This document shows, in pieces, positions 3,001 to 29,037 of a DNA stretch of 40,221 nt (its first letter is position 1; every line of letters starts with the position of its first letter). The notes beneath the pieces were generated by a model. That model made no database searches and was not told the origin of the DNA. It saw only the letters and a program-made list of their open reading frames with translations. The stretch is from assembly GCA_965368975.1 (NCBI GenBank), contig CBDUPA010000033.1:1-40221 (forward strand), given 5' to 3'. The stretch comes from an uncultured bacterium (lineage in GTDB: Bacteria; Acidobacteriota; Thermoanaerobaculia; Multivoradales; JAHZIX01). Both the position numbers and the translations under genes were made by a program.

Positions 3001-4949
3001 TCAACGCCGGCTTCCGTAGCCGCCTGTTCGACACCACCACCATCGAGCGCTTGCTCGGTCACTGCGAGGTGCTGCTGGAGTCGATCGTCGAAGCGGAGGT
3101 CGCAGATCTGCCGCTGCGCCGCCTGCCACTCTTGAGCCGTGCCGAGCGACACCAGTTGTGCGTCGAGAGCAACGATACCCACCGCGCCTATCCCGACGAC
3201 GTCTCGCTCGCCACTCTGGTGCGCCGTACCGCCGAACGCTTCCCCGACGCCGTCGCGGTGCTCTATCCGGGCGGCACCGATCATCACCTCAGCTATCGCG
3301 AGCTGATCCGCCGCGCCGATCTACTGGCTACGGCCCTGCGCCAGAACGGCGTTGGCCCCGACGTCCTGGTGGCGCTCGACCTCGAGCGCTCGCCGGAACT
3401 GATTGTCGCCACCGTCGGCGTCATCCTTGCTGGTGGTGCCTACCTGCCGCTGAACCGCAACTACCCGCAGGAGCGCCTCGACTTCCAGCTGCGTGACGCG
3501 GGTGTCGAGGTGGTGGTGGGCGAGGGGGGGATCGCGATCCCAGCCACCTCCCCAGGGCATCCAAGTGGGGGTGCCCCGACTTCTCTCAACCTTGCCTACA
3601 CCCTCTACACCTCCGGCTCCACCGGTCGTCCCAAGGGCGTCGCCGTGACTCAACAGGGCGTCGCACGTCTGCTACTCGACAATCCCTACGCGGACTTCGG
3701 CCCCGGTCGCCGTTTCTGCCAGGTCGCCAACTTCGGCTTCGACGCCGCCACCTTCGAGGTCTGGGGCGCGTTGCTGCACGGGGGCTGCGTCGTCGGCGTG
3801 CCGCGAGACCTCAGCCTGGCCCCGGCGCGACTGGCTCGCTTCTTCGCCGAACACCGCGTCGACGCCGCTTGCTTCACTTCCGCCCTCTTCCACCAGACCG
3901 CGCGCTCGCATCCGGAGACTTTCGCTGGCCTGCGCGATCTGCTCGTGGGTGGTGAGGCCGTCGAGCCCGAAGCCTCGCACTTGTTGCTACGCTCTAGTTC
4001 CGGAGGTGGCTTCCGCGGCCGTCTCGCCAACGCCTATGGTCCGACCGAGTGCACCGTCATTGCCACCGTCGGTCCGGTGACGCTGCCGGACGTCGAAACC
4101 GCTGCCGATCAGCCCGCACGTGGCGCTCGCGCGCACGGACGCCTGTCGATCGGCCGTCCGATCGCCAACACAGAAGTCTTCCTGCTGGACCCGCACGGCG
4201 AGCTCGTCGTGCCCGGCGTGGCCGGTGAACTCTACCTGGGCGGCCCCGGCCTGGCGCGCGGCTACCTCGGTCGTCCGGCGCTCACGGCTGACGCTTTCGT
4301 CCCGCATCCCTTCACACGTGAGTCCGGCTCCCGTCTCTACAAGACCGGCGATCTCGTGCGCCGCCTGCCCGACGGCCGTCTCGACTTTCTCGGCCGTCGC
4401 GATCACCAGGTCAAGCTGCGCGGTTTCCGCATCGAGCTGGGCGAGATCGAGATGGTGTTGCGGGCGCAAGAAGGGGTGGAAGATGCCGTCGTGCTGGTGC
4501 GCGGCGAGGGGGACGGACGGTACTTGGTGGCTTATGTCGTCGGTCCTGTCGTCGGCCGAGACCTTCTGGCCGCCACCCTGCCCGACTACATGGTGCCGCG
4601 CTACCTCGTGCCACTCGACGCCTTCCCCCTCACCGCCAACGGCAAACTCGACCGCCGCGCCTTGCCCGACCCTGACACCACACCGCGCGACACTTACGTG
4701 GCGCCGAGGAGCGAACTGGAAGAGGACCTCGCCGAGTTGTGGGCCGAACTGCTCGCCGTCGAGCGCGTTGGCGTCGAAGATGATTTCTTCGAACTCGGCG
4801 GCCACTCCATGCTGGCGATGCAACTCATGTCGCACCTGGAGGCCAGCCTCGGCTTCCCGGTGCCGCTGGAGAAGCTGTTCTCTCAGCCCACGATCGCGGC
4901 CTTGGCGGTGGTGCTGGAAGACCTGGCCGAGGAGTTCGAAGACGACTGA
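3..4949 (+). CDS. Non-ribosomal peptide synthetase, 5'-truncated by the window edge; domains A(partial)-T-C-A-T, no terminal TE/R domain
   Basis: The frame is open upstream of the ORF-track start at 93 (YLLYTSGSTGRPKGV, A3 motif). A-domain motifs YGPTE, YRTGD/YKTGD and RGFR(V/I)ELGEIE occur twice; T motifs FFRLGGHSLL and FFELGGHSML; C domain SYAQQRLWFL and HHIASDGWS. Ends EEFEDD* at 4949. Confidence 0.97.
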   Translation, partial: CALPSAGTEPCPDSPAYLLYTSGSTGRPKGVLVTHRGVSRLLLGNPYMPFTSRLRIAQLNNTAFDASTIEIWGAWLHGGTLVGVPRQISQDAAAVPGYLHRWGVEMAMIPSALFAHLARTRPEVLDGIPYINIGGEAADREACRRFLARTEGRRPGRLLNGYGPTECTVYSQVEILYPTDAEPTDDEAPIVAIGRSVAATEAVLLPPGGPVCWHEPLPLGVAGELCLGGARLARGYHRRFGLTAERFVPHPFPSSSRGGDRLYRTGDLVRMLGDGRFDYLGRLDHQIQLRGFRVELGEIEAVLRGVEGVEEAVVLVHGEGEGRYLVAYVVAGAQASHAESGATPHVPEGDHMGSPLPRSDSEVLLPEVCLDVARAGLPDYMVPRHIVPLAALPLNAHGKTDRAALAAIELQDPRSSQHRAELDRTAPRDEVEALLVRVWAKLLDVGEVGVHADFFRLGGHSLLAASLLAEAESAFGVHVSLAMFFEQPTIASLARHVRTARERRVAVGDAYGKTLLRRPPLVSLDRREIETDAEGRPVLPQSYAQQRLWFLDRLEPGLPTYHIAVPLRFRGDLDVAGLHATLEGILARHEALRTTFAQHGAEAVQVIHPPPRPGHRQPLPLIDLGGLVSGADPGTEVSSEVSERVEVELERLAAAEARRPFDLTRDPMLRVVLVRLPRVPTEATAGDEGVEGMVSEHGVLATLHHIASDGWSVGVLVKDVAMLYQAWVGGEWRGQERRPLPPVQVQYADYAVWQRRWLETVAGEPADSEDAAEDAPPITVLDRQLDYWRTQLTGAPTLDLPLDRPRPPRFETSGSHALRILPARLARRLEAFALDSGNTLFVTLLTAFEVLLLRWTGQADISVGTPVAGRTRAEVEPLIGFFVNTLVLRGRLDADASFRDAQAQLRNVVLTGQDHGDVPFERVVEALQPPRDRSRTPLFQVLFTLQTTATGRLDLPGLDLRAVPLRSGVAKFDLEVQAQPYIDPEAPRNSDGEVEATLLLNAGFRSRLFDTTTIERLLGHCEVLLESIVEAEVADLPLRRLPLLSRAERHQLCVESNDTHRAYPDDVSLATLVRRTAERFPDAVAVLYPGGTDHHLSYRELIRRADLLATALRQNGVGPDVLVALDLERSPELIVATVGVILAGGAYLPLNRNYPQERLDFQLRDAGVEVVVGEGGIAIPATSPGHPSGGAPTSLNLAYTLYTSGSTGRPKGVAVTQQGVARLLLDNPYADFGPGRRFCQVANFGFDAATFEVWGALLHGGCVVGVPRDLSLAPARLARFFAEHRVDAACFTSALFHQTARSHPETFAGLRDLLVGGEAVEPEASHLLLRSSSGGGFRGRLANAYGPTECTVIATVGPVTLPDVETAADQPARGARAHGRLSIGRPIANTEVFLLDPHGELVVPGVAGELYLGGPGLARGYLGRPALTADAFVPHPFTRESGSRLYKTGDLVRRLPDGRLDFLGRRDHQVKLRGFRIELGEIEMVLRAQEGVEDAVVLVRGEGDGRYLVAYVVGPVVGRDLLAATLPDYMVPRYLVPLDAFPLTANGKLDRRALPDPDTTPRDTYVAPRSELEEDLAELWAELLAVERVGVEDDFFELGGHSMLAMQLMSHLEASLGFPVPLEKLFSQPTIAALAVVLEDLAEEFEDD
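1047..1071 (-). repeat. GTAG-family REP-like palindrome inside the NRPS coding sequence
   Basis: Minus strand reads GTAGG-GGCGACC-CCATGT-GGTCGCC: a GTAG tetranucleotide followed by a 7-bp GC-rich stem. It lies in an insertion present in the first A domain but absent from the second. Confidence 0.6.
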
Positions 4950-4961
4950 CTGGCTATCTGG

Positions 4962-5372
4962 CTACACCTCGCTCAACGCTTTGGCGAAGCGTTCCAACTG
5001 GTCGAGATCTTCCTGCAGGATTTCGTACAGTCGCTGGTAGTCGACATCCAGGTACATGTGAACGATCAAGTTGCGTAGCCCTGCCCAGCCGGCCATCTGC
5101 TCGGCGAGCTCTTGGTCCAGCAGGCCGTCGGCTTGCAAGAGTCCAAAGACCTCACGATTGGTACTCGGAGCCCCGAGGCCACGATCCGCGATCAGGTGGT
5201 TGGCGATATCGAGACTGCACTCGACCGCGACCTGAGACCACCGTTCGGCCTGCGCTTGGAGGCCCGGATCGGTCATGAACTCATGCAGGGGGACTTCCTG
5301 CAGCCGCCGCAGGTGACGCAGCGTTTCTTCCAGCTTTCCGAGGCGCAAGGCGAAGACGTTACGGTCGACCAA
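4962..5372 (-). CDS. hepT: HepT-like HEPN RNase toxin (DUF86)
   Basis: 136 aa with an RX4HXY motif (RNLIVHMY); overlaps the upstream MNT gene. Confidence 0.92.
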   Translation of the reverse strand: MVDRNVFALRLGKLEETLRHLRRLQEVPLHEFMTDPGLQAQAERWSQVAVECSLDIANHLIADRGLGAPSTNREVFGLLQADGLLDQELAEQMAGWAGLRNLIVHMYLDVDYQRLYEILQEDLDQLERFAKALSEV

Positions 5373-5769
5373 AACGCCCTTCCTTCAGCCGCTGCAGTTG
5401 CGCTTCCCGGTGGAAGTCTCGCCAGTATTGAAGGTCCAGAGATTGACCGATGGTCCGTACGAAGTACTGTACCCAGGCGCTACGGTCGCGCACGAACAGA
5501 CGCTGACCCTTCAAAGCCTGGTGACCGAGAAAAGGTGGAGCGTCGTTCAGAACCACCACGTCGACGCGCCCGAACTCTTCCAGGTCGACGCTCAGCCGGC
5601 GCCGAATGGCGAAGCGTTGACGAGCGTCGAGGTCTTCGTCCAGGTAGACCGCAACGTCCCAGTCCGAATCCGGCCGCGCGGTGCCATCGGCACGGGAGCC
5701 GAAGAGGAGGGCGAACAGGATTTCATCCTGCTTCTTGAGTCGCTCGGTTAACAGTTCGAGAGTGGGCAT
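5359..5769 (-). CDS. mntA: MntA-like minimal nucleotidyltransferase antitoxin
   Basis: GSX10DXD motif (GSRADGTARPDSDWD) and VDVVVLN; directly upstream of the HEPN gene. Confidence 0.92.
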   Translation of the reverse strand: MPTLELLTERLKKQDEILFALLFGSRADGTARPDSDWDVAVYLDEDLDARQRFAIRRRLSVDLEEFGRVDVVVLNDAPPFLGHQALKGQRLFVRDRSAWVQYFVRTIGQSLDLQYWRDFHREAQLQRLKEGRFGRP

Positions 5770-5809
5770 CGGCTCATTATGGCATGGATGCTGTCGAGGA
5801 AAAGTCGGC

Positions 5810-7792
5810 CTAGTGCGTCCGAAGCCGAAGAATCAGCGGCTCATGGTCGCTAGCCTGAAGATATGGCGGAAAATCTGCGTTGACATGCACGATCTCCAGC
5901 TGCGGCTGAGCCTTCTGTGCCAGCGTCGGACTGATCAGGACGTGGTCGAGCACTTGGGAGTTGCCCTGGTAGTTGTAGGTGTAGCGCTGGGCCAGGGGGA
6001 CCGTTTCCAGGAGGTTGACCAGGCCGACTTCGTCGACCAGGTGACGGATCGGGGCGCGGAACTCGTGCTCGTTCATGTCGCCGAGTACGACGACCCAGGC
6101 TTCGGGATCGACGTTCAGCAGCTCGGTGACGAAGGCGCCGATGACCTGCGCTTGTTCCAGGCGACGCTTTTCGCTGTGACGCACCGGTGGTTGACGGCTG
6201 CCGAAGTCGCGGTCGTCGCCGCGCTTGGAGGTGAGGTGGTTGTTGATCAGGAAGAGGCGGCGGGCGGTGGTGCCGTGACCGATGCGGAACTCGGCGGCCA
6301 GACTCTTGCGGCTGCCGCCCTCATCGCTGTCCGGGTCGGGGCCGAAGGCGGCATGCTCGGGCTCGATGCGGCCGGGGCTGAGCGTGAGGGACAATTCGCC
6401 GCCGCCGGTGCCGGGGTCGATCTCGACGGCGTCGGTGGGGCCGGCTTCACCACGGTCGAGGAAGGCGACGCGTTCGGGGTTGAACAGGTAGACAACGCGG
6501 ATGTTGCCGTCCGGCTGGCCGCCGTCGGCGTTGGGCAGCGGGTCGATCTGACGGTATTCGTAGCGCGGCCCCCCGGCACTGCGGATGGCGAAGATCAGCT
6601 TCTTGAGCGTCTGGTTGGGCGAGGTCCAGGGGCCCGGCTCGGCGCCGTTGTCGTCTTGGACTTCCTGCAGCGCCAGGATGTCCGGGCTGGCCATCGGGCC
6701 GGCGATCTGCGCGGCCAGGCGGCGGAACTGCGTGTCGGGATCCTTGGCGTCGAGGTTGAGCACGTTGTACGTCGCGATCGTGATGTGCTCGTCGTCGCCG
6801 CGCAGGATCGAATGGGCCTCTGGCGCTGGGGTATCCGCGACGGGTTCTGAGCTGCCAGGAGCCTTCATACCATAGGGGATGAGCAGCGGCAGCGGCTCGG
6901 TGGGCAGCAGCCGATAGGTGCCGTAGTCGTAGCTCAGCACGCCGACGATCGCGCCGTCGAAGCGGTCGCCGACGCTAGCCTGCGGCACTTGGTAGTCACG
7001 CGGCAGCAGCGCGTCGACGTTGATGATCAAGCGCTCGGGGTTCAGGTCGTTGTTGGTCAAGACGACTCCGCCGCGGGCGCTGCGATTGTCGATGCCGGCA
7101 CCGCCGCTGGGCAGCACGACGATCTCGCCGTATTTGCTGGTCGGTCCAACCACCACCGGGTCCGGCACGCGCACGCGCATGCCCTCGAGGCTCTCGTAGA
7201 AGTCTAGCGCGTCGGTGGTCGGTTCGAAGGCGCCGAGGCCGTCGTCGTCGATCACGGGGCTGGGGGGCCTACGCCGGGCCACGGCGGTACTGTCCGCTGG
7301 CAGGCTGCCAGGTCCCAACTCGACGACCGCCGGCAACGCGACCTCGCCGCTGTCGTCGACGCTCTCCACCGCCGTCGCGGCGATCTGCGTCACCGGCAGC
7401 TGGCCGTCTCGCTCCGGTTCGCGCACCTCGCCGGTCACCCGCACCGGCAACCCGACGCTCACCGCACACGCCACCTCGCACGTCACGTACACGCCCTCGG
7501 ACGTCGCCGGGTTGCCGTCGTCCTGGGCGCTCTGCAGCCAGAAGCCGCGCGGCGTGGGTTCTTCGCCGCCCTGAGTGTCGTCACGAAGGGGCAGCGTCGC
7601 GGTGACGATGCCGTCGACGGTGACCGTTTGCCCGACCCTGGGGGAGCGGTGCGCCTCGCCTTGGATCTCCGGGATGGTCACCACGTCGGTGACCTGTGCA
7701 TTGACCTCCTCGGGTGCCTGTGGCGACGCCGCGATGGGGAGGCAGAGCAGGGCCAAGGCCGAGAAGAGCAGGGGACGCAGCTGGGTGTTCAT
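5810..7792 (-). CDS. Secreted endonuclease/exonuclease/phosphatase-family nuclease with N-terminal OB-fold (ExeM/NucH/YhcR-like)
   Basis: Signal peptide; TIPEIQG..HRSP, DGNPATSEG, ESLEGMRV, ATYNVLNL, LQEVQD, NHLTSK, GDMN, LDHVL, SDHEP. Confidence 0.9.
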   Translation of the reverse strand: MNTQLRPLLFSALALLCLPIAASPQAPEEVNAQVTDVVTIPEIQGEAHRSPRVGQTVTVDGIVTATLPLRDDTQGGEEPTPRGFWLQSAQDDGNPATSEGVYVTCEVACAVSVGLPVRVTGEVREPERDGQLPVTQIAATAVESVDDSGEVALPAVVELGPGSLPADSTAVARRRPPSPVIDDDGLGAFEPTTDALDFYESLEGMRVRVPDPVVVGPTSKYGEIVVLPSGGAGIDNRSARGGVVLTNNDLNPERLIINVDALLPRDYQVPQASVGDRFDGAIVGVLSYDYGTYRLLPTEPLPLLIPYGMKAPGSSEPVADTPAPEAHSILRGDDEHITIATYNVLNLDAKDPDTQFRRLAAQIAGPMASPDILALQEVQDDNGAEPGPWTSPNQTLKKLIFAIRSAGGPRYEYRQIDPLPNADGGQPDGNIRVVYLFNPERVAFLDRGEAGPTDAVEIDPGTGGGELSLTLSPGRIEPEHAAFGPDPDSDEGGSRKSLAAEFRIGHGTTARRLFLINNHLTSKRGDDRDFGSRQPPVRHSEKRRLEQAQVIGAFVTELLNVDPEAWVVVLGDMNEHEFRAPIRHLVDEVGLVNLLETVPLAQRYTYNYQGNSQVLDHVLISPTLAQKAQPQLEIVHVNADFPPYLQASDHEPLILRLRTH

Positions 7793-7872: not shown

Positions 7873-8496
7873 ATGCACCGAGCCCTCGAAGCCCTCGACC
7901 GCCTGCGCGAAGGTAACGCCCGTTTCGTCGCCGACGATGCCGACTCGACGTCGGTGATCAGCCAGCAGCGGCGCAAGGAGCTGGTCGCCGAACAGCGTCC
8001 GTTCGCGATCATTCTCGGCTGTTCCGACTCCCGCGTGCCGGCTGAACTCGTCTTTGACCAGGGCCTCGGCGACCTGTTCGTCATCCGCGTCGCCGGCAAC
8101 ATCGTGGCGCCGTCGCAGATCGGGAGCATCGAATTCGCCGCCGACCAGTTCGGCACACGGCTGGTGGTCGTCATGGGCCACTCCAGCTGCGGCGCCGTCA
8201 GTGCGACGCTGAGTGAGCTGCAGAATGCCACGCGGGCTCCGTCGCCGAACCTTCGCGCCATCGTCGACCACATCCGCCCCAGCGTCGAGGGCCTGTTGGA
8301 AACCGACCTGCGCGACAAGCCGGACGAACTCATCCACCAGGCCGTGCGCGCCAACGTCCGCGCGGCGGCAAACCACCTGCGGCACGGGTCGCGCATCCTG
8401 GAAGACCTGAGCCGCGACGACGGTCTGCTGGTGGTCGGTGCGGAGTACTCGCTGGAGACGGGGAAGGTCGACTTCTTCGACGGCGTGCCCGTCTAG
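7873..8496 (+). CDS. Beta-class carbonic anhydrase
   Basis: Zinc-ligand motifs GCSDSRV and GHSSCGAV, plus GDLFVIRVAGN; RBS GGAGA upstream. Confidence 0.96.
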   Translation: MHRALEALDRLREGNARFVADDADSTSVISQQRRKELVAEQRPFAIILGCSDSRVPAELVFDQGLGDLFVIRVAGNIVAPSQIGSIEFAADQFGTRLVVVMGHSSCGAVSATLSELQNATRAPSPNLRAIVDHIRPSVEGLLETDLRDKPDELIHQAVRANVRAAANHLRHGSRILEDLSRDDGLLVVGAEYSLETGKVDFFDGVPV

Positions 8497-8512
8497 CCAG
8501 CCTTGCTGTAGC

Positions 8513-9289
8513 TCAGGTCGGCAATGCAGCCTGCCCCGCGGCGATCCGCAGAGCTTCGACCGCGGCCACGCGTAGAGGATCGACCAATTCGACCGTCGAC
8601 GCCTCGAGCGTCAGCGGGTGCAAAGCCAGCGGAATCTCGGTGCAGCCGAGCACGACCGCGACGGCCCCGGCGTCGCGCAACTGCTCGGCGGCGTCGAGCA
8701 GGACTGGCCGGTGGAGCCGTGGGTCGTCGCCCGCCTTGAGGCCGAAGATCGCCGCCATGACGGCCGCCTGTCGCGCTGCACCCTCCGCGAGGTCGCGCGG
8801 GTTGCACCAGCTCAAATTGCGTCCGCCAGCAGCTTCCATGCGCCGGGCCGCCTGGGGATAGAGTTCGGCCTCGAGGGTGCCGGACGTCGCCAGCATGCCG
8901 ATACGGGCCGTGGCGCCGAAGCGCTGCGCCAAGGTGCGGACAGTGAGGCAGACCATGTCGAGAATCGGGATCTCGACGCGGGGCCGGACCGCGTCCAGAA
9001 AGGCGTATGCCGTGTTGCACGCGAGCAGCGCGAAGTCGGCGCGTCCCTGCAAGCGGTGCAGGCTGGAGACCAGCGCGTCGACCGGCGAGGCACCACCGTC
9101 GAGCAGGCAAGCCGTGCGATCCGGCGTCGCGGGCAGCGAGGAGAGCAGCCAGGGCGGGTAGTCTTGCTCACACTCGATCGCGTGGCCCAGGACTTCCGGC
9201 GCCGCGTCGAGCAGGTGTTGCTCGAGTCCCAGGTGCGCGCGCGGTCCGAGACCGCCGACGATGCCGAGCAGGCGGGGCCAGAGGGTCAT
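8513..9289 (-). CDS. Aspartate/glutamate racemase family protein with both catalytic Cys
   Basis: LGIVGGLGP, PDRT, ACNTAY, LATSGT, LGCTEIPL. Start placed at ATG 9289 rather than 9376. Confidence 0.9.
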   Translation of the reverse strand: MTLWPRLLGIVGGLGPRAHLGLEQHLLDAAPEVLGHAIECEQDYPPWLLSSLPATPDRTACLLDGGASPVDALVSSLHRLQGRADFALLACNTAYAFLDAVRPRVEIPILDMVCLTVRTLAQRFGATARIGMLATSGTLEAELYPQAARRMEAAGGRNLSWCNPRDLAEGAARQAAVMAAIFGLKAGDDPRLHRPVLLDAAEQLRDAGAVAVVLGCTEIPLALHPLTLEASTVELVDPLRVAAVEALRIAAGQAALPT

Positions 9290-9539
9290 GGGGGAAGTAT
9301 CGCATGGTGGGGGGGGCAAGCGGGTCCTGGCAAGATGATGCATTGAGTTGGCTTGCTGGCCTGATGTGGAGCCCAAGTCCAGTTCAGGAGGCGTTCTGGT
9401 TCCCCTGCTTGCCAGCCAAGCCTGGAATGTTCTCTTCTCCGAGAGCGAGAGGCTCTACGACGCGGTGCGGTGTCTTCCATCTATTCTCATTGGTTCAGTT
9501 TGTCCTTCAGGCTCGCGTCCGTGAATGCAGACAGATGAG

Positions 9540-9628
9540 TGGACACTTTGTCCAGCCTGTGCTACCTTTATCCATACTATGGATAGATCTTCACAGAACC
9601 TCTGTGGTTATGCTGTATCGATTTCGAT
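9540..9628. promoter_or_regulatory. AT-rich cluster of perfect palindromes (candidate operators) upstream of the island operon
   Basis: TGGACA-ctt-TGTCCA (9540-9554), TATCCATA-c-TATGGATA (9569-9585), CACAGA-acc-TCTGTG (9592-9606), ATCGA-tt-TCGAT (9617-9628). Confidence 0.45.
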
Positions 9629-9730
9629 TTATAGGATATCTAAATTGATATTGCCTGTTTGTGCCTGATGGAGGTTGATCGTGTTGATCGAGAGTGTTGT
9701 AGATCTGGCCAACTCGAAAGGGGGATGACG

Positions 9731-10006
9731 ATGCAAGCTTTGGTGATGGAAGTCGGGTTTAAGGTCGTCGTGACCGTGAGTGGACCTCGGAAGCGCAGTA
9801 CTGAGCCTCCAGTTCCTTCGCACGAAGACACGGAGTGGCCAAGCTCTAAGGAAGCGAAGGCCCAGAAGTGCGTAGGGCAGGTCGCTGGACCATCCAACAG
9901 AACAGAAAGCCGCCTGGGCCAGGTTCAGTATCTTTGTGAGAAGATCTTGCCGATCTTGGCAGCCAGTTCGACGACCCTGGGTTTCTTGATGTCTCTCTTG
10001 GGTTAG
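9731..10006 (+). CDS. Possible small hypothetical protein (91 aa) with hydrophobic C-terminus
   Basis: Purine-rich AAAGGGGG about 6 nt before ATG 9731; same strand as the operon and 93 bp upstream of it; no recognisable motif. Confidence 0.3.
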   Translation: MQALVMEVGFKVVVTVSGPRKRSTEPPVPSHEDTEWPSSKEAKAQKCVGQVAGPSNRTESRLGQVQYLCEKILPILAASSTTLGFLMSLLG

Positions 10007-10099
10007 TGGTGAGTTTGGTGCCTCAGCGGCAAGGAAGACAGCCGCAGAATGCAGTTAGAACTATCCATGCAAAGTAAGAATGATACTTGGAGATAAGCA

Positions 10100-11410
10100 A
10101 TGAGTTCTATGTCCTTGGGGCAGGAGCAATGTGAGTGGCTTGAGAGCTTACGAGAGGACTTCAAAATCTCGCAGCATGAGATCGCTAAAAGTGGTGGCAT
10201 CCCACAGGCAAGCGTCTCAAATTGCCTGAGGGGGCAGGCTCTCAATAGTGATTCGCTGAATAGATTCTTTACTGGATTATGTGAGTGCGTGCACGTGAGT
10301 TCTGGGCTGAAGTCAGATGGGACAGCCGAAGTAATGGCTGAACTCGATGCTATGCGAAAGAGCTTGGGCCTTGCTGGCGAGGACTGTGTGAGTATTCCGC
10401 GTCCTGGGGCTGTCTCCGAAAGCAATCGAGTAGTCCGAGTAGACGTTGAGAAGGTCCTGTCTCGCGCGTTGAGTGAAGCACCCTTTACTGCTGCAGTTGT
10501 CGGCTCGCCAGAATCCGGGAAGACTACATTGTTGCAGGTCTTGACGTCTAAAGCCCGGCGGATTGGTTTCAAGGTCGTAGAGTTCGATGTTCGTTTGTTA
10601 GAGCCGCCTGAGTTCCGAGAGAAAGATGAAGGCTCAGAAGAGAGCCTTGCTTGCTTCTTCTGTGAGCTGGCAATGGAGGTAGGTACTACGCTCGAGGCAA
10701 GTCTAGAGAAGGCCAAGGCAGTAGACGGACGCCTAGCGTTCTCGAGATACTTGCGCCAGCTTCGCGCTAAGGTCTCCGAGCCCCCGTTACTCATCGTATG
10801 TGATCACGCTTCAGTATCGCGAGGCGTACTGGAGGAGCTTGCCCAGACATGTCGTTCATTAGACGCCTACAAAGGCAGGACTCAGGTTTCCTGGGCCTTG
10901 GATGTTTCCGGCAATCCAGGCAGTCATCGTGTCGGTGCAGTATCCAAGTTGGCGCCTTCACCAATGATCGAGTTGGGTTGGTTTTCTGGGCGACAGGTTG
11001 AAGATCTGGCTGATCTTTACGAACTGCGGGAAAAGGAAGCTCGCGCGGAACTCTGGAGGTGGTTCAAGGGGCACCCCTTCCTTACGCATAGCGCGCTGCA
11101 TCGCTATCGCGATTTCTGTGAGAACACGCTCATTGAGGACAGCTGGGCAGCCGTTGGTGCCGAGATCACAGCTTCGCCTCCGGGTGGGCCGTTCAAGCAA
11201 CACCTCAGTCGGCTGAAAGGACGTGTTGGAGAGGAATTGAAAGCCGCGAAGCCTCTAGCAGAGCTTCAGGCTCTTGGTGAGCAAGCTGCCGGTGAGCAGC
11301 GAGATTTATTGCCGCTCTGTGTACGCCAGTATCTCCTGCCGCATCTCGATTCTGGTCTCGCGGGATTGCCCGAGTTCTATATTCATCAGGAGGGTTTCTT
11401 ACGCTCATGA
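10100..11410 (+). CDS. XRE-type HTH fused to AAA_35-like (STAND-related) P-loop NTPase with degenerate Walker B
   Basis: N-terminal ISQHEIAKSGGIPQASVSNCLRG (HTH); Walker A GSPESGKT; Walker B LLIVCDH; later WFKGHPFLT and PFKQHLSRL resemble the GGHPYL and HL.RL segments of AAA_35 proteins; GGAG RBS. Confidence 0.75.
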   Translation: MSSMSLGQEQCEWLESLREDFKISQHEIAKSGGIPQASVSNCLRGQALNSDSLNRFFTGLCECVHVSSGLKSDGTAEVMAELDAMRKSLGLAGEDCVSIPRPGAVSESNRVVRVDVEKVLSRALSEAPFTAAVVGSPESGKTTLLQVLTSKARRIGFKVVEFDVRLLEPPEFREKDEGSEESLACFFCELAMEVGTTLEASLEKAKAVDGRLAFSRYLRQLRAKVSEPPLLIVCDHASVSRGVLEELAQTCRSLDAYKGRTQVSWALDVSGNPGSHRVGAVSKLAPSPMIELGWFSGRQVEDLADLYELREKEARAELWRWFKGHPFLTHSALHRYRDFCENTLIEDSWAAVGAEITASPPGGPFKQHLSRLKGRVGEELKAAKPLAELQALGEQAAGEQRDLLPLCVRQYLLPHLDSGLAGLPEFYIHQEGFLRS

Positions 11411-13710
11411 GTCTCATGAAATTCGCGCGAGGGCAGACTGTCGAGTCTGGGCATATTTATGTGCTGCGGGATATTGATCGGCGTTTCCGAAAACTGGCTC
11501 TGGCAGGTGGTTGGTTTGGCATTCAAGGCTGCCGAACGATGGGAAAGAGCAGTTTGGCGGTGCGTTCCTTCCAAGAGTTGGCAGCGCAAGGTTGCCGATC
11601 GGTTTTCTTGGACCTGGGAGCTTGGAACCAAAAGAAAATTGAAGCTTGGCTCGAGGATTTTGCGAGCGAGCTACTGACGGAGCTTGGCGATACCTTGCCC
11701 AACCCTCCGGTACCCGAAGACATTCTCGGAGATATGTCTGGTTTCCTCCAGCGTTGTTCCGAAGGTGCTGAGCGTACTTTGATTGTGCTCGACGAGGTGG
11801 ATTGGTTGCAGGAGTTGAAGTACCGGCGCGAGATCTTCGCGCGTTTGCGCGCTGCACAGAGCAAGCTGGCTCTGCGCGGTGAAGCAAGCCGGCTGGGTTT
11901 CTGCTTCATTAGCTTGAAGCCGTTGACCCGAGAAGGTGCAGCCAGGTACGGACCCATAATTCAAACCCTTCAAGTACCGGATTTTCCCACCGAGAGTGCT
12001 GCCGGAGAGCGGGTCGTCACGGCTCTCAAGCAGGGATTCAACCCAGACGTCCGCCGCCGAGCTGCGATCGCGCGTACGGTGTTGCGACAAGCGGGGGGGC
12101 AGCCCTATCAGACGATGATCCTGGCCAGTGAAGTGGCAGATAAGCAGGCGAGATCGGCCAAGCAAGCGCTTGAGGTTATCCAGGCTTATGTCGACGCGCA
12201 GCGCGATCACCCGAAAGAACTCTTTTCGCAGATTCAGGAAATGTTCCTCGAGGAGCCGATTCGGGCCCATGAAGCGCTGAATGAGTACGAGAGTCTTCTG
12301 CGCGGCCAGTTCTCTGCGCTGGGAACCGTAGGGGCCGATGTCTTGCTGCGCTCGGGGCTAGGCTGTGAGCGGAACGGCGCCTTGGCCATAAAGGGTCCAG
12401 TTTTCGAGCGCTTCTTCGATCAACGGTGGGTAAGCCGGATGCGGGATCAGCTGTTGATAGCGCAGCGACAACAGCGCCCTCGCTGGCGAGCAGCGGGTAC
12501 GATGAAGCCGCGAATCTGCATCCTAAACACCGGCGGTACTGTCGGCATGGTGCGACGCGAGAGCAAAGTTGTAGCACCAAGAGATGAAAAGGAATTTCTG
12601 GAGAACTATTCTTCTCTTCAACAAATTGCAGATATCGACTTCGAGCAACCTTTCGTGCGCGACAGCATTAATGTCTATCCGCAGCAGTGGAAGCAAATAG
12701 CTGAGACTATTTACCGCAAGAGGGACGAAGGATATGCGGGTTTTGTCGTGGCTCATGGCACAGACACCATGGCTTTTACAGCTTCCGCGGTAGCTTTTGC
12801 TCTGGGGCCCAATCTATCGGTTCCTGTCGTCTTCACAGGGTCACAGACCACGCCGGAAGTTCTGCATGGAGATTCGCAGGCGAACCTGATTCGTTCCTGC
12901 ATGGTGGCGGCTCGGGGTACAGAATTACCGGAGGTGGTGATCTGCTTCGGAACGAAAATCTTTCGTGCGGTACGGGCGCAGAAGCGAGATGAGCGTCGGT
13001 TCGAGGGGTTCGACTCACCGACGTTTCCGCCGCTTGGGGAGATCACGGAAGATATCTTGCTAGATCGAGAGCGGATCCGCGAAGGGCCCAGTCTAAGAGT
13101 CGACCTGATCCGCCAGCGACCGGTCGAAGGGACCGATATCCAACTGCAGCCCGATTTTTCACCAGGGGTCTTGATGGTTCAGTTGACACCGGGTCTGGAA
13201 CCAAACTTCTATTTAGACATTATCGAGAGAAGTGAGTATCACTCTTGCGAAGGGGTCATTCTGCAGACCCTGGGGGCGGGCAATGTCGCGATGCTGGAAC
13301 CGTATGGCTTCACGCGCTTTCTGGTTCGCGCCCGGCACCAGGGGATACCCGTCTTGATCACTTCGCCCTATCCCTGGAGTCTGAGCTTGTCGGAAGAGTA
13401 CGCTCCTGCGGCCGAGCCGGCAAAGTTAGGCGCGCTTATCGGTGGCGAGATGACGGCTGCCGCAGCCGTGACCAAGTTCCGCTGGGCTCTCGCGGCAGTA
13501 GCCGCGGAGGTGGAGAGTGGGCAGTTGAAGCCTTCAGGGCGCATCGAGCGGGTTCGCGAGATCATGCAAACCAACTTTCTGGGAGAGAAGGACGGGCCGA
13601 TGTGGCAGGACAATCAGCGAAAGCCTGGAACTCCGACAAGGAACTCCGTCGACTTGAAGAGTCGGAATCAATCGAAGACCGGCGATACTAACAAGGAGAA
13701 CGCAGCATGA
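11407..13710 (+). CDS. AAA_35-like P-loop NTPase fused to a type I L-asparaginase domain
   Basis: YVLRDID, Walker A GCRTMGKSS, Walker B LIVLDEVD, GGQPYQT, FDQRWV. From 12502: NTGGTVGM, DSINV, HGTDTMAFTAS, PVVFTGSQ, RAQK..FEGFDSP, LGAGNV. ATGA overlap with the previous gene. Confidence 0.88.
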   Translation: MSLMKFARGQTVESGHIYVLRDIDRRFRKLALAGGWFGIQGCRTMGKSSLAVRSFQELAAQGCRSVFLDLGAWNQKKIEAWLEDFASELLTELGDTLPNPPVPEDILGDMSGFLQRCSEGAERTLIVLDEVDWLQELKYRREIFARLRAAQSKLALRGEASRLGFCFISLKPLTREGAARYGPIIQTLQVPDFPTESAAGERVVTALKQGFNPDVRRRAAIARTVLRQAGGQPYQTMILASEVADKQARSAKQALEVIQAYVDAQRDHPKELFSQIQEMFLEEPIRAHEALNEYESLLRGQFSALGTVGADVLLRSGLGCERNGALAIKGPVFERFFDQRWVSRMRDQLLIAQRQQRPRWRAAGTMKPRICILNTGGTVGMVRRESKVVAPRDEKEFLENYSSLQQIADIDFEQPFVRDSINVYPQQWKQIAETIYRKRDEGYAGFVVAHGTDTMAFTASAVAFALGPNLSVPVVFTGSQTTPEVLHGDSQANLIRSCMVAARGTELPEVVICFGTKIFRAVRAQKRDERRFEGFDSPTFPPLGEITEDILLDRERIREGPSLRVDLIRQRPVEGTDIQLQPDFSPGVLMVQLTPGLEPNFYLDIIERSEYHSCEGVILQTLGAGNVAMLEPYGFTRFLVRARHQGIPVLITSPYPWSLSLSEEYAPAAEPAKLGALIGGEMTAAAAVTKFRWALAAVAAEVESGQLKPSGRIERVREIMQTNFLGEKDGPMWQDNQRKPGTPTRNSVDLKSRNQSKTGDTNKENAA

Positions 13711-15227
13711 AGGCAACAGCTGACCTTGGAAGAGTTCTAGTGCTCTATACCGGAGGCACTATCGGTTCCCGGCCCCGCGATTTGGAGGATCCGGACAGTC
13801 CCCAGTATGTGGTGCCCTGGAAGGATCTGGAGCGCGGTACTCCCGAACTGGCCGCGCTGCAGGCGAAGCGCGGTTTTCAGGTCGATGCCGTCTCGAGTGA
13901 TCCGCCGCTGGATTCGTGCAACATCGGCCCCAAGGAATGGATCCAGTTCGCCAAGATCATCGCCGAGAAGTATGAGGAATATGAAGGTTTTGTGATCTTA
14001 CATGGTACGGATACCATGGTGTATACAGCATCAGCGCTTTCCTTCATGATCCGCGGCCTGCGCAAGCCCGTGATTCTGACCGGTGCACAGCGTTCGGCGC
14101 TGGTTGACGTGCGCAACGATGCCTCTCAGAACTTCATCACGGCCTTGTTGCTGGCTAACCCGAAGTTTTCCAGTATCCCAACCGTGCCGGAGGTGACGAT
14201 CTTCTTCGGCGGTAAGCTGCTACGGGGAAATCGAACGATCAAGCAAGATACAACTGGATACGATGCCTATACCAGTCCGAATGTGCCAGCCCTGGGGAAA
14301 GTGGGCGACAAGGTTGTTATCCACAAGAACCGTCTGAGTGAGCCACGGGAGCAGGAACACTTCCGAGCGCAGCTACGGCTCGAGGATCGAATCCTGCCCT
14401 TGTTCATCTACCCAGGCATCACGCCGCAGGTCGTCGAGGCGCAAATCGAAGCGACGAAGCCGAAGGCGGTGATCGTGCAAGCGTTCGGCTCTGGCAACAT
14501 TCCCAATCTCGATCCAGAACTGGTCGAGGTATTCCGCCGAGCGCGGCAAGAGAAGATGATCCTGATTGCCGTAGTTTCCCAGTGCACCCAGGGGCCAGTA
14601 GAACTCGGAATCTATGAGACGAGCGCTGAGCTCTTGGATGCCGGCTTTATCTGCGCCAACGACATCACTTTGGAAGCAGCACAGTGCAAGTTGATGGCCT
14701 TGCTCGGTGATCCGGACATCAGTCTGGAGGAAGCCGAGCAGGAGTTTCAGCGTGCGATGGCAGGGGAACAGAGCCTCTCGGCTTACGTAACAGATTTCTC
14801 AGACGAACCGGGAAAGCTACCGGCGGAGGGCGATGCGCCCACGCGCGTTCGTTTCAAGGCACGCCCTCTGGCGGGAGTGTGGGAGGCCTCCAATCTTTCT
14901 CAGGCGCTGTTACGTTTCCGCAAAGGCTTCGTGACGGTGGACAAGGGGAAGGGCAAGGCTTCCCGGGACTATACCGAGTATCAGATCTACCTCAACGCTG
15001 CGCCGGACGAAGAAGTGAGTCCAGACAATCCTGGTTACGCTGGCACCTTCAAGCAGTACTCGATGACCGAGGGGCAAGCGAGCTTGGTACTGTTCGACAT
15101 CACCGAGGCCTTGCGTCCGCTGGCAGCGTCGGGAGAGCGGATCTCGTTCACGATCGTTGGTGAGGACGAGCGCGCTACGTTCACTTGGGAGCAAGTGGAA
15201 CTAGCGCTCTTCGTGCGCGAGGCCTGA
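13707..15227 (+). CDS. ansA: Type I (AnsA-like) L-asparaginase with ~150-aa C-terminal extra domain
   Basis: YTGGTIGS, LDSCNI, HGTDTMVYTASALSF, KPVILTGAQ, RGNRTIK..GYDAYTSPN, FGSGN, SQC; AAGGAG RBS; ATGA overlap. Confidence 0.93.
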   Translation: MKATADLGRVLVLYTGGTIGSRPRDLEDPDSPQYVVPWKDLERGTPELAALQAKRGFQVDAVSSDPPLDSCNIGPKEWIQFAKIIAEKYEEYEGFVILHGTDTMVYTASALSFMIRGLRKPVILTGAQRSALVDVRNDASQNFITALLLANPKFSSIPTVPEVTIFFGGKLLRGNRTIKQDTTGYDAYTSPNVPALGKVGDKVVIHKNRLSEPREQEHFRAQLRLEDRILPLFIYPGITPQVVEAQIEATKPKAVIVQAFGSGNIPNLDPELVEVFRRARQEKMILIAVVSQCTQGPVELGIYETSAELLDAGFICANDITLEAAQCKLMALLGDPDISLEEAEQEFQRAMAGEQSLSAYVTDFSDEPGKLPAEGDAPTRVRFKARPLAGVWEASNLSQALLRFRKGFVTVDKGKGKASRDYTEYQIYLNAAPDEEVSPDNPGYAGTFKQYSMTEGQASLVLFDITEALRPLAASGERISFTIVGEDERATFTWEQVELALFVREA

Positions 15228-15271: not shown

Positions 15272-16663
15272 ATGAGTCCAGCTGACGTCGCGAGCGAAGC
15301 CTGGGCGGGCTTGTTGCGAGGAGTCGAGGACCGTGTGCCGCCGCCGGTGCTGCACACGGCCGCCTTTCTCGCTGCGCACGGTGTGTGGTGCCGTTTGAGC
15401 CGCAATCACGAGGCGTTCAGCTGCCGGGATGCAGCCCGCAAACGTTGGCGTCTCGGGCACGAAGGGATCGAACTCTGGAACGAGCTGAAGTCTTACTTCG
15501 GGCGTTTCCGCAATGCTTCCGGCCACGAGCAATTTGTGCTGGCGCACTGCCGGGGAGATCGAGTGGTCAATCTCGAACAATTAGCCCGGGCGTTGCACGC
15601 CCAAAGAGAAGTCGAGCGCTTGGATGAAGCGGAGGTCAAGCGCTTCGGGGTTCAATATGGGTTGGTGAACCCGTTCGAGACGTGGAAGGTTTCTGAGTAT
15701 GAGATGGACGGACCTGCCTTGACGACACCGGTGCTACAAGTCTTCGATCGAGAACTGGCGACGCCGCTCGGAGTTCCCGGTACGGTCATGACCAATGCGG
15801 GAGATCTGACCTGGGCAGTGGAGTTCGATGTTGTGGCCTTGATGGATGCTCTGGACAATGCCTTCGTCGAAGACATTGCCGATCCGGATCCCGAGAACGA
15901 CGCGATGCTCTGGGGAGCCCGAGAGCCGAAGAGTATCGGGATCTTGACCGGTAATGCTCCGGAATCGGGGATCCACCTCTGGAATGATGTCAACCGTTAC
16001 GTGCGCGAGCTACTCGGGTCTCTTAGTTGTGGTGACGTATCGATGCCGCCGGTGAATGTCTATAGCCTGCCCGCGATGGGATTGACTATGGAGCTGGCGG
16101 AGCGAGAGCAGGCCATCTGGCCACACGTAAGAAAGGCAGTGAAGAACGCTTGCGTCGACGGTGCGCAGCTGTTAGCCATTGCGTGCAACACAACGCATTA
16201 CTTTACACCTCGCATTCGAGAGATCTGCTCTGAGTACGGTACTGAGTTCGTTGCGATGCCGGAGATTCTAGCTGATTGGTTGCGCCACCAGAGGATCACT
16301 GATCTGGCGTTTGTCGGAATCCGGTATGTTTCGGAGTTGGGGAAATGGAGTGGATACCGCGAAGCTTTGGACGAGTTCAAGGTCGAGCAGCTGAGTGAAC
16401 GTGCCAAGGAGCTGCTCGACGAGTTGGCATATCAGGTGAAATCCGAGGGACCTACGGAAAAAGGTCTAAACCGCCTGCGAGATATCCTGCGCCAAGAGGT
16501 CGATAGCGAAACGGTCGTTCTTGCCCTCACCGAGCTTTCCATCTTGCTTTCTATCCAACGTAAGAAGAGCAGAAGTGGACGCCTGATTATCGACCCTCTG
16601 GCACTCTACGCGGAGGCTCTGGCTCGCAAGTATCTGGGGCTACCCTTCCCGGCGGAGGATTGA
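15272..16663 (+). CDS. YbaK/ProX-like (INS superfamily) aminoacyl-tRNA editing domain fused to an Asp/Glu racemase-like domain
   Basis: N-half: SCRDAA, ELKS (conserved Lys), VLAHCRGDRVVNLEQL, GLVNPF (GxxxP), VFDREL, NAGDLTWAVEF. C-half from ~15929: IGILTGNAPES, IACNTTHYF, VVLALTELS. Confidence 0.78.
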   Translation: MSPADVASEAWAGLLRGVEDRVPPPVLHTAAFLAAHGVWCRLSRNHEAFSCRDAARKRWRLGHEGIELWNELKSYFGRFRNASGHEQFVLAHCRGDRVVNLEQLARALHAQREVERLDEAEVKRFGVQYGLVNPFETWKVSEYEMDGPALTTPVLQVFDRELATPLGVPGTVMTNAGDLTWAVEFDVVALMDALDNAFVEDIADPDPENDAMLWGAREPKSIGILTGNAPESGIHLWNDVNRYVRELLGSLSCGDVSMPPVNVYSLPAMGLTMELAEREQAIWPHVRKAVKNACVDGAQLLAIACNTTHYFTPRIREICSEYGTEFVAMPEILADWLRHQRITDLAFVGIRYVSELGKWSGYREALDEFKVEQLSERAKELLDELAYQVKSEGPTEKGLNRLRDILRQEVDSETVVLALTELSILLSIQRKKSRSGRLIIDPLALYAEALARKYLGLPFPAED

Positions 16664-28991: not shown

Positions 28992-29036
28992 TCCAAGAGG
29001 ATCCTCTCCAAGAGGATGCTGTTCAAGAGGAGTGGA
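28992..29036 (+). repeat. Three 15-bp tandem units, each containing CAAGAGGA, ending in the comA RBS
   Basis: tccaagaggatcctc / tccaagaggatgctg / ttcaagaggagtgga. Confidence 0.75.
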
Positions 29037-29037
29037 G

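Follow-up and report, generated by a model that had tools for sequence, protein, structure and literature searches.

A STAND-like NTPase fused to a type I asparaginase in a four-gene cassette of an uncultured acidobacterium: a possible conflict system

Introduction

In the V4R-asparaginase systems, conflict systems predicted in October 2026 (bioRxiv 10.64898/2026.10.19.760177, section 36 and legend of Figure 6E), the V4R domain is fused to ParA, TIR, HEPN or 2TM. Here, a gene cassette is described that resembles these systems, as outlined in that section, in the coupling of an asparaginase-family gene to an NTPase or effector, and that has two such asparaginase genes. It was found in an uncultured bacterium (GTDB lineage Acidobacteriota; Thermoanaerobaculia; Multivoradales; JAHZIX01) on contig CBDUPA010000033.1 of assembly GCA_965368975.1; the whole stretch analysed (positions 1 to 40,221 of the forward strand, 40,221 nucleotides) is referred to as the window. 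The second gene of the cassette, g2 (11407-13710, plus strand, 767 amino acids), encodes an AAA_35 NTPase fused to a type I asparaginase, as indicated by its open reading frame (ORF), Pfam, an AlphaFold2 (AF2) model and VIA structural alignment. It is accompanied by genes for an NTPase with a helix-turn-helix domain (g1), a second asparaginase (g3) and a YbaK/racemase-like protein (g4). With a probability of roughly 0.42, g2 is gene 2 of a horizontally acquired NTP-switch conflict system of four genes, the core of which would be the asparaginase pair and the YbaK/racemase-like protein.

In contrast to the V4R-asparaginase systems as described in the preprint, neither V4R nor a ParA family was found in a Pfam scan of g1 to g4; the cassette has an AAA_35 STAND-type fusion, a second NTPase with HTH or TIR, and the YbaK/racemase-like protein. 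The words racemase, YbaK and GatD are absent from the main text of the preprint. The two kinds of system are linked by one locus (L004), in which a ParA-like gene lies beside both asparaginase types of the cassette. The NTP-dependent conflict systems, as presented in the main text of Kaur et al. (eLife 2020, PMC7159879), share NTPase switches, TIR effectors, FGS sensor-type domains and mobile cassettes with the related loci found here. Asparaginase, racemase, YbaK and AAA_35 are absent from the main texts of that paper and of its 2021 sequel (PMC8195603), and the word asparaginase from the main text of PMC13581612. Our literature search yielded no description of a STAND- or AAA_35-asparaginase fusion, of a system combining asparaginase with a YbaK/racemase-like protein, or of the AAA_35 family; the only match to asparaginase, YbaK and racemase combined was an RNA-seq study of Shigella, unrelated in its subject. 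The nearest system in print therefore appears to be the one in the V4R-asparaginase section of the preprint, and the cassette would belong with the NTPase-based and the predicted asparaginase-based conflict systems.

STAND NTPases (NLR/AP-ATPases, MalT, Avs, PAB2304, SSO1545) share with g2 the P-loop core followed by a helical domain and a winged-helix module. They differ from it in that g2 carries an enzyme and not a repeat array, has no fused N-terminal effector and is one of two separate NTPase proteins.

Results

The intact Walker A and Walker B motifs and the complete asparaginase with the Thr of GGT, HGTDT and the Lys of RxxK, which a preliminary description of this DNA had placed in one ORF, were all located by script in the single open frame of g2 (767 codons). 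On the plus strand, Walker A (GCRTMGKSS) covers residues 41-49 (11527-11553), Walker B (LDEVD) residues 128-132 (11788-11802), TGGT residues 375-378 (12529-12540), HGTDT residues 450-454 (12754-12768) and RAQK residues 523-526 (12973-12984, with K526 at 12982-12984); GGQP (12094-12105) and DSIN (12661-12672) were found in addition. Four parts can be distinguished in the protein, all encoded on the plus strand. The NTPase module (residues 1-356, 11407-12474) consists of a P-loop core, a helical domain and a winged-helix-like end according to AF2 and VIA. It is joined to the asparaginase domain (residues 366-730, 12502-13596; Pfam PF00710 and PF17763, Foldseek, VIA) by a linker (residues 357-365, 12475-12501), which varies in length and sequence among homologues and has a predicted local distance difference test score (pLDDT) below 50 at residues 357-359 and 361-364. 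The C-terminal tail (residues 731-767, 13597-13707; pLDDT <50) is predicted to be disordered and is not conserved, being different or absent in most homologues. In the Pfam scan, the asparaginase N-domain was matched at residues 369-555 (E 2.8e-52) and Asparaginase_C at 588-697 (E 1.5e-10). The combination of PF14516 with PF00710, by which the architecture was to be recognised, is present, the AAA_35 match (PF14516, residues 9-148, E 1.1e-6) being marginal with 28.2 bits against a cut-off of 27 and restricted to profile positions 4-154. AAA_22 and AAA_16 scored under their cut-offs.

A search of 5.8 billion clustered proteins (E ≤ 1e-3) returned 138 relatives of g2, of which the best 120 were inspected in detail. 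Among these best 120, 114 are 679-796 amino acids long, with identities of 31-60% to g2, and 93 have a P-loop Pfam family beside both asparaginase families. Sources named among the homologues listed include Thermoanaerobaculia, Pyrinomonadaceae, Blastocatellia and Acidimicrobiales. When 25 sequences are aligned, G46, K47, D129 and E130 of the NTPase as well as G376, G377, D419, S420, H450-T454 (with T452 and D453) and K526 of the asparaginase are invariant, while the nucleophile T378 is retained in 24. With the same architecture in independent assemblies and motifs that hardly vary, if at all, the comparison shows that the NTPase-asparaginase fusion is real and conserved and not an artefact. 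The ATG at 12502 (M366), put forward earlier as an internal start, is indeed located at the domain boundary, but is not conserved (Met in one of the 25 aligned homologues).

The public gene call of g2 (P0001, 723 amino acids) begins at M45 within Walker A, so that residues 1-44, and with them half of the P-loop, are missing from database copies (window 11407-11539). This start is probably wrong, because the N-termini of the homologues agree with a start at 11407.

The AF2 model of g2 (pLDDT 84.7 overall, mostly 80-97 in the NTPase module) shows the P-loop core at residues 35-190, the helical domain at 198-298 and a helix/two-strand/helix unit at 308-336. When the NTPase module was aligned with VIA to 48,161 PDB representatives, the archaeal Walker ATPases PAB2304 (2qen_A; Z 19.5, rmsd 4.0, 305 residues) and SSO1545 (2fna_B; Z 19.2) were the top matches, followed by a wheat NLR resistosome (9h2l_A; Z 15.4, 285 residues), MalT (8bob_D; Z 15.0) and WRR4A, ZAR1 and CED-4 (Z 14.8 to 13.5, the latter value for CED-4, 2a5y_B). 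Altogether, matches to STAND proteins span Z 19.5-11.4 with 191-305 aligned residues and cover model residues 4-347. The order of modules in the nucleotide-binding and oligomerisation domain (NOD) is the same, residues 11-351 aligning with 9h2l, 9qlv, 6j5t and 2a5y and residues 11-275 with MalT (8bob). ORC/Cdc6 and TnsC AAA+ proteins match the module about as well as the NLRs do (Z 13-15); the fold alone therefore cannot separate STAND from ORC-like AAA+ proteins, and the assignment from the model is 'STAND-like'.

The family of the module points in the same direction. Residues 1-365 of g2 retrieved 2566 relatives at E ≤ 1e-3 from 1.84 billion representatives, and the module was matched at E 4e-32 to a strong AAA_35 member (P0122; E 3e-58 to AAA_35). 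Partner domains were surveyed with Pfam in the first 50 by rank among the best 150 module relatives, excluding the asparaginase fusions already found. The most frequent partner was WD40 (16 proteins), followed by NTPase modules only (12, several of them tandem), asparaginase (7), LRR (6, one also with FGE-sulfatase), TPR (2) and CHASE2 (2); FGE-sulfatase alone, PASTA, PAS and LptF/G were found once each, and in one protein nothing was detected. The AAA_35-type module is nearly always N-terminal or the second of two NTPase modules in these 50 proteins. Tandem NTPase modules in one chain are common among them, which supports g1 and g2 as a split form of such a chain. Taken together, the fold matches to NLRs, CED-4, MalT and ATPase_2 proteins and the WD40, LRR, TPR and FGE-sulfatase domains of the relatives bear out the earlier designation of the g2 NTPase as STAND-like, in predicted fold as well as in family architecture. 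The C-terminal sensor or repeat region typical of STAND proteins is not found in g2, where the asparaginase follows the NTPase.

For the asparaginase part of g2, a two-domain fold with type I asparaginases and GatD as top Foldseek matches (E 1e-22 to 1e-19) was predicted. VIA matches ranged from Z 37 to 29 over 299-332 aligned residues; the best was archaeal GatD (2d6f_B, Z 37.9), with ordinary asparaginases within 1 (5dnc_A, Z 37.2, and another at 37.1). With phmmer against PDB sequences, E. coli AnsA came first (E 6e-30, g2 residues 364-696). The g2 domain resembles AnsA (PDB 2p2d, 2him) in the two-domain fold, the Thr of TGGT, the Thr-Asp of HGTDT and the Lys; it is set apart by the attached NTPase and by a second paralogue that always accompanies it, and the substrate-loop motif DSSD of AnsA reads DSIN in g2 and DSCN in g3. 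The catalytic roles of the TGGT Thr and of the Thr-Asp-Lys set are those known from EcAI and EcAII. With GatD of GatDE (PDB 2d6f, 1zq1), the cassette has, besides the structural match, the aminoacyl-tRNA theme in common by way of the tRNA-editing-like domain of g4. In contrast to GatD, the g2 and g3 proteins score only 143.9 and 173 bits, respectively, with the NCBIfam GatD model (cut-off 324), and a Pfam scan of the called window genes revealed no GatE-like family. Both proteins also stay below the cut-offs of TIGR00519 (asnASE_I; g2 165.4 and g3 233.6 versus 260.5 bits) and PRK09461 (g2 135.7 and g3 235.7 versus 376 bits). The g2 domain thus appears to be an intact but divergent type I asparaginase.

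The gene g3 (13707-15227, plus strand) encodes a second type I asparaginase (residues 8-350) followed by a beta-sandwich tail (residues 356-505), as assigned with Pfam, AF2 and VIA. Its asparaginase is 29% identical to that of g2, and T15-T18, D69, S70, H99-T103 and K179 are invariant in 16 of 16 homologues. Judged by these residues, both asparaginases of the cassette appear catalytically intact. The preliminary description had considered a hetero-oligomer of the fusion with the free asparaginase next door; across the loci compared here, g3 proved to be an obligate partner gene of g2. The tail of about 150 amino acids (g3 model pLDDT 82.4) was best matched by the C-terminal domains of bacterial tyrosinases (7xio_A, Z 9.8, rmsd 3.2, 118 residues; 8b74_A, Z 8.6) and by tomato polyphenol oxidase (6hqj_A, Z 8.1), with generic jelly-roll domains close behind. 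Atlas leads for the tail were DUF7868/PPO1_KFDV (0.80-0.82), Pfam PPO1_KFDV was matched weakly in two of five tails (E 0.068 and 0.022), and a word search with the tail returned just six proteins, all of them asparaginase plus tail. In tyrosinases and polyphenol oxidases, the C-terminal domain shields the active site and has to be removed to expose it; by analogy, the g3 tail might be a lid or docking domain.

Asparaginase domains were compared in a FastTree phylogeny of 132 sequences, from which a near-duplicate (L116) and domains of less than 250 amino acids were left out. The g3-type sequences form one clade of 24 (node support 0.26), and five plain asparaginases encoded beside g4, together with an extra asparaginase of L115, form another one (0.999). 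Domains of the g2 type (g2C) were not resolved as one clade, and their common ancestor also holds 16 generic sequences. A single lineage of 'conflict asparaginases' is therefore not claimed. The sister of the g3 clade (parent support 0.98) is a 490-amino-acid asparaginase (L021:4498-5967) from a metagenome-assembled genome (MAG) of the Fusobacteriaceae, whose neighbours look like housekeeping genes judging by no more than the initial 60 residues of each frame. This protein may represent a non-immune ancestor type of g3.

The product of g1 (10100-11410, plus strand, 436 amino acids) was assigned as an HTH protein with an AAA_35-type NTPase by Pfam and motifs: AAA_35 was matched with 29.4 bits (cut-off 27) and HTH_3 weakly (E 0.005). 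Walker A (GSPESGKT, 10502-10525), Walker B (LLIVCDH, 10787-10807) and GHPFLTH (11069-11089) are encoded on the plus strand, and G135, G140, K141 and D235 are invariant in 14 homologues, so that Walker A and the Walker B Asp are retained. Whereas g1 has no C-terminal sensor domain, g2 has no N-terminal effector. The fourth gene, g4 (15272-16663, plus strand), encodes a YbaK/tRNA_edit-like N-domain and an Asp/Glu-racemase-like C-domain, according to Pfam and motif alignment. Pfam scores were 27.1 bits for tRNA_edit (cut-off 25.5, profile positions 30-83 only) and 35.9 bits for Asp_Glu_race (cut-off 31). Among 28 aligned sequences, the motif MTNAGD is invariant and the Lys of ELKS, which may correspond to the catalytic Lys of YbaK, is present in 25. 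The first racemase Cys is kept in 18 sequences and replaced by Ala in nine and by Asp in one.

Further loci were retrieved by a DNA pattern for Walker A and by alignment to the fusion and to g4, and were then analysed by blastp and with own hidden Markov models (HMMs). All four genes are present on 18 further distinct contigs, on 17 of them in the same order (L086/L111, L088/L115, L085/L116, L090/L131 and L005/L118, where paired identifiers denote one contig, L112, L117, L120, L121, L124, L125, L127, L133, L098, L104, L107 and L110), while g3 and g4 are swapped in L113. In L119 and L100, g2, g3 and g4 follow an unidentified or truncated upstream gene, and L096, L114, L123, L128 and L134 are cassettes cut by contig ends. 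The contigs with four genes come from MAGs designated as Acidobacteriota, Actinomycetota, Bacteroidota, Desulfovibrionaceae, Magnetococcales, and Gamma- and Alphaproteobacteria. An asparaginase gene adjoins g4 in all 24 loci retrieved with g4; 18 of these have the g2-type fusion, one has only g3 (at a contig end) and five have a single plain asparaginase. The alignment scan with the whole fusion mainly caught generic asparaginase motifs (78 ordinary loci and two relevant ones, L004 and L005). These 78 loci (L006-L083) served as background set, and g1, the NTPase module of g2 and g4 were found in none of them. Because of this difference (24 of 24 versus 0 of 78), the link between asparaginase and g4 appears to be specific. 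Nine loci retrieved with the Walker A pattern (L084, L092, L099, L101, L103, L105, L106, L108 and L109) were rejected, since they gave no blastp match to g1-g4 (1e-5/1e-4) and were taken to be chance hits or too short.

Some copies look broken: g1 is split in L098 (3543-4898), g2 in L134 (1-1929) and the X-TIR gene described below in L132 (9319-10470). These cases may reflect decay or sequencing errors in metagenome assemblies. Several genes at the position of g1 are long, with N-terminal parts that Pfam does not explain, namely L097:984-3068 (about 260 amino acids before the HTH) and L133:1578-3533 (652 amino acids); a third (L096:2923-4602, cut by the contig end) has at least 130 amino acids before the HTH. 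The gene upstream of g2 in L119 (2398-4146, 583 amino acids) matched neither the g1 HMM nor Pfam.

In most loci, g1 carries an HTH of the XRE type. In L090 (E 4e-21) and L107 (E 3e-21), its N-terminus is TIR_2 instead of HTH, and in L104 and L110 the HTH-containing g1 is kept and a convergent TIR_2-NTPase gene is added beside g4. A further TIR protein, here termed X-TIR, consists of an N-domain of about 230 amino acids, for which Atlas returned only matches to unnamed clusters, and a C-terminal TIR_2. It is encoded in L090 (633-1889), L107 (8118-9206), L126 (5140-6252), L129 (8212-9354) and, as the split copy, in L132. Identities among the X-TIR proteins are 25-33% over 200-370 amino acids (69% between L090 and L107; E 1e-20 to 1e-48). 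The gene is located directly upstream of the cassette in L090 and L107, and in full length directly downstream of asparaginase/g4 in L126 and L129; X-TIR is hence common to NTPase-type and cyclase-FGS-type systems. In the genome to which the window belongs, no X-TIR orthologue was detected, only weak TIR-domain matches on other contigs (E 6e-4 and 6e-3).

No AAA_35 NTPase was found in the five loci with a single plain asparaginase and g4. Directly upstream of this pair, a Guanylate_cyc-FGE-sulfatase is encoded in L122 (4168-5682), L126 (953-2488) and L132 (5234-6769), and a TIR_2-FGE-sulfatase in L130 (5576-6862), while in L129 two amidases, an S58 peptidase and an Orn/DAP/Arg decarboxylase are located upstream. 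In L004, two asparaginase genes come after the one for the ParA-like NTPase, one encoding a free protein of the g2C type (42% identical) and the other a protein of the g3 type, including the tail; V4R was not detected by Pfam at E ≤ 1e-3 in the C-terminal 175 amino acids of the ParA-like protein.

Genes related to defence or mobility adjoin several of these loci: Wadjet JetD (L004), an Eco57I-type methylase (L005), integrases (L100, L127), a MobL relaxase (L115), TrbI (L128), Schlafen/AlbA_2 and TPR-CHAT (L112), DUF4062-TIR (L131) and a WYL regulator (L125). Enzymes dependent on pyridoxal phosphate (PLP) are another recurring type of neighbour, comprising Orn/DAP/Arg decarboxylases (L005:11283-12596, L122:2708-4165, L129:4363-5625), the decarboxylases Pyridoxal_deC (L119:52-2064) and OKR_DC_1 (L127:296-1804), class IV aminotransferases (Aminotran_4; L121:9338-10213, L124:1120-1983) and PALP (L104:9964-11796, L110:2654-3742). 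The recurrence of PLP enzymes of unrelated families hints at a longer amino-acid-derivatising pathway. Neighbours related to aminoacyl-tRNA synthetases were seen in three independent loci (a class II D/K/N synthetase in L086, SerRS in L104 and a B3_4 domain in L088/L115), which may be due to chance.

In the window, the four co-directional genes are located on a low-GC island (53-60% GC in a background of 68-70%). At its left edge, the GC fraction drops from 0.69 (8001-9000) to 0.58-0.53 (9001-11000). Stop and start codons overlap as ATGA at both ends of g2, with g1 upstream and with g3 downstream. The NTPase module of g2 was not found in any of five genomes of the same family or in 33 of 35 genomes of the same order; the two matches in the remaining same-order genomes were weak and lie within frames of 1391 and 1008 amino acids. 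The low-GC island, the co-directional overlapping genes and the missing counterparts in close relatives indicate horizontal acquisition of the cassette. Around the island, no direct repeats that would mark an insertion were seen, only short chance-like ones. A separate, ordinary asparaginase is encoded on another contig of the same genome (C20:4509-5450).

The left edge of the island is formed by a stretch of about 720 bp located 5' of g1 (9377-10099, no strand assigned), in which no credible gene was called and no Rfam family, no tRNA and no promoter-like site above the level of shuffled sequences was found. In the whole window, no Rfam family and no tRNA were detected, and promoter and terminator scans did not exceed the shuffles. 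A canonical Asp/Glu racemase gene (8516-9376, minus strand; E 2e-26, Cys motifs ACNTA and GCTE, host-like GC) adjoins this edge; its position may be a coincidence or may be relevant to an Asp/Asn chemistry of the cassette. Further upstream (4965-5769, minus strand), a gene for a HepT-like RNase (E 7.6e-29) overlaps one for a Polbeta/MNT nucleotidyltransferase (E 6.6e-20); together they make up a HepT/MNT toxin-antitoxin module within a second, smaller GC dip (0.604 at 5001-6000). Other genes of the window encode a non-ribosomal peptide synthetase module with PP-binding, condensation and AMP-binding domains (3-4946, plus strand, running off the window start), a DUF3368 protein in a lower-GC patch (21871-22347, plus strand) and a ComA (phosphosulfolactate synthase) fused to 2-phosphosulfolactate phosphatase (29032-30534, plus strand).

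Discussion

The cassette is probably a conflict system directed against invaders, since relatives in many bacteria carry TIR domains of the immune type. In the mechanism proposed here, g1 (an HTH-NTPase with no sensor) and g2 (an NTPase-asparaginase with no N-terminal effector) would be complementary halves of one STAND-type switch. Upon a trigger, their NTPase modules would bind NTP and co-assemble, by which the asparaginase domains of g2, together with g3, would be joined into catalytically competent oligomers. Asparaginase active sites form across subunits, and co-assembly of the NTPases could therefore switch catalysis on; that the activity is gated in this way has about an even chance. 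The oligomers would hydrolyse an amide of the Asn/Gln type, either free or on a carrier such as tRNA, and g4 would bind the product or process it further. As output, the Asn/Gln-Asp/Glu pool or charged tRNA would be drained and the infected cell thereby arrested, while the HTH of g1 would regulate transcription. Whether the enzymes are the output or make a signal is, for the cassette in general, finely balanced. For the version in the window, the balance tips slightly towards an output, because it is devoid of TIR, cyclase or other killing domains and its genome of X-TIR.

Several observations weigh against this reading. None of g1 to g4 is matched by PADLOC models, and the literature search returned no experiment on any member of the cassette. 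The island is flanked by genes for an extracytoplasmic function (ECF) sigma factor, an ABC-2 permease and a carbonic anhydrase, which are not defence genes, and the sole genes of toxin-antitoxin type in the window, HepT/MNT at 4965-5769, are located two genes further upstream. A joint assembly of g1 and g2 was assessed by complex prediction of the two NTPase modules (three runs and three controls, with own alignments, so that the calibration counts hold roughly). Contact between the two modules was predicted with a median ipSAE of 0.57 (0.59, 0.53 and 0.57) versus 0.00 for the best control, but this value is in the weak range: the threshold was passed by 58 of 80 solved complexes and two of 110 mismatched pairs, and seven of these solved complexes and both mismatches fell at or below 0.60, where passing scores are wrong more often than not if the pairing was not already likely. 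The runs share at least 80% of their contacts and the partners have a pLDDT of at least 81; the predicted contact between g1 and g2 is nevertheless weak.

The enzymology gives further reason for caution. A Val of g2 aligns with the flexible-loop Tyr of AnsA (Y24 of EcAI), no loop Tyr is conserved in the g2 family, and among g3 homologues this position varies between Y, F, V, I and L; the substrate or rate of both proteins may therefore differ from those of the housekeeping enzymes. In g4, the second racemase Cys is replaced by L or M in all 28 sequences (A/L-[LM]-TE, versus GCTE in the neighbouring racemase encoded at 8516-9376). A function of g4 as a two-base racemase is thus unlikely by its sequence, and so is a drain by racemisation as such. 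Finally, the asparaginase occupies the position at which sensor-type repeats are usually found in this NTPase family, which fits a role in sensing or signalling at least as well as that of an effector. The preliminary description had called the asparaginase the C-terminal effector; this is not established, given its position, the TIR_2 effector domains found in relatives on g1 or on extra genes and the constancy of the asparaginase and g4.

In a broader and tentative view, asparaginase and the YbaK/racemase-like protein may be the core of a widespread, undescribed immune class using amino-acid amide chemistry, be it by starvation of Asn, Gln or charged tRNA or by a messenger. The STAND-asparaginase fusion would then represent a variant with the NTP switch directly coupled to the enzyme, and a messenger could possibly be read by X-TIR, FGS, V4R or STAND partners.

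A rather unlikely alternative, yet the one that survives best, is that the enzymes act as a signal generator. Here, the asparaginase or asparaginases and g4 would make or process a messenger that can diffuse, with asparagine or another amide as its source, and partner proteins would fire the effectors; the messenger might be received by the N-domain of X-TIR, by FGE-sulfatase domains or, in the ParA systems, by V4R, and the racemase-like domain of g4 and the NTPases are less certain candidates. Infection would be sensed by the NTPase that is joined to the asparaginase, this NTPase thereby switching signal production on. The distribution of the genes speaks for it: the pair of asparaginase and g4 remains the same across systems whose TIR, cyclase, HTH and ParA parts differ, and the variable effectors include Guanylate_cyc-FGE-sulfatase, TIR_2-FGE-sulfatase and X-TIR. 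In CBASS, Pycsar and Thoeris, the constant part is the signal generator and not the effector, and by this analogy the pattern would mark a signal generator, at the expense of the output function favoured above for the window. Moreover, the racemase-like domain of g4 is devoid of the two-thiol dyad yet otherwise conserved, as would be expected for a ligand-binding pseudoenzyme, and the PLP enzymes of several unrelated families beside the cassette suggest a short amino-acid-derivatising pathway. On the other hand, we know of no messenger made by an asparaginase-family enzyme. The window and most four-gene loci encode no recognisable effector beyond the HTH, unless the YbaK-like domain of g4 is one, and the X-TIR orthologue that could serve as receiver is missing in the genome of the window. 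The same principle is proposed for the V4R-asparaginase systems in section 36 of the preprint (bioRxiv 10.64898/2026.10.19.760177), and L004 pairs a ParA-like NTPase with asparaginases of both the g2C and the g3 type.

It is improbable that g1 and g2 are a split MalT-like STAND transcription factor of amino acid catabolism, with the asparaginase as sensor of Asn, Gln or Asp, rather than part of an immune system. Such a metabolic regulator would account for the XRE-type HTH on g1 in most loci, for MalT among the structural matches of the NTPase, for the asparaginase in the sensor position of the family and for partners that all act on amino acids (the second asparaginase, the racemase-like domain, decarboxylases and aminotransferases), with a canonical aspartate racemase gene adjoining the island. 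It would not account for the replacement of HTH by TIR_2 in L090 and L107 or for the TIR proteins added in L104, L110, L126, L129 and L130. The patchy distribution, the low-GC island and the integrases, relaxases and defence genes near other loci are also at odds with it, as are the invariant catalytic residues of the supposed sensor and the separate ordinary asparaginase of the genome.

That faulty assembly or a frameshift merged an NTPase gene with an asparaginase gene starting at ATG 12502, for which the ATG exactly at the boundary and the low confidence of the linker might be cited, can be considered refuted as far as sequence comparison allows. Against it stand the full-length architecture shared by the 114 homologues from independent assemblies and the boundary Met, present in a single one of the 25 aligned homologues. 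A free g2C-type asparaginase was seen only in the ParA-type locus L004, whose NTPase differs, and L134, where g2 consists of two ORFs, is probably a broken copy.

Bacterial defences known to date act by depleting NAD+, nucleotides or ATP or by nucleotide signalling. If the reading of the cassette as a conflict system is true, its amidohydrolase pair and tRNA-editing-like core would add amino-acid or aminoacyl-tRNA chemistry to the outputs or signals of immunity. As a compact set of four genes found in many phyla, the cassette would be, next to the ParA-V4R form outlined in the preprint, the first concrete gene set with which it can be asked whether asparaginase-family enzymes act in immunity. 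Its natural variants (HTH or TIR on g1, the cyclase-FGS and TIR-FGS forms and the ParA form) offer a ready-made dissection of sensing and acting parts, and the AAA_35 family, with 2566 representatives at E ≤ 1e-3, could thereby be given a testable function.

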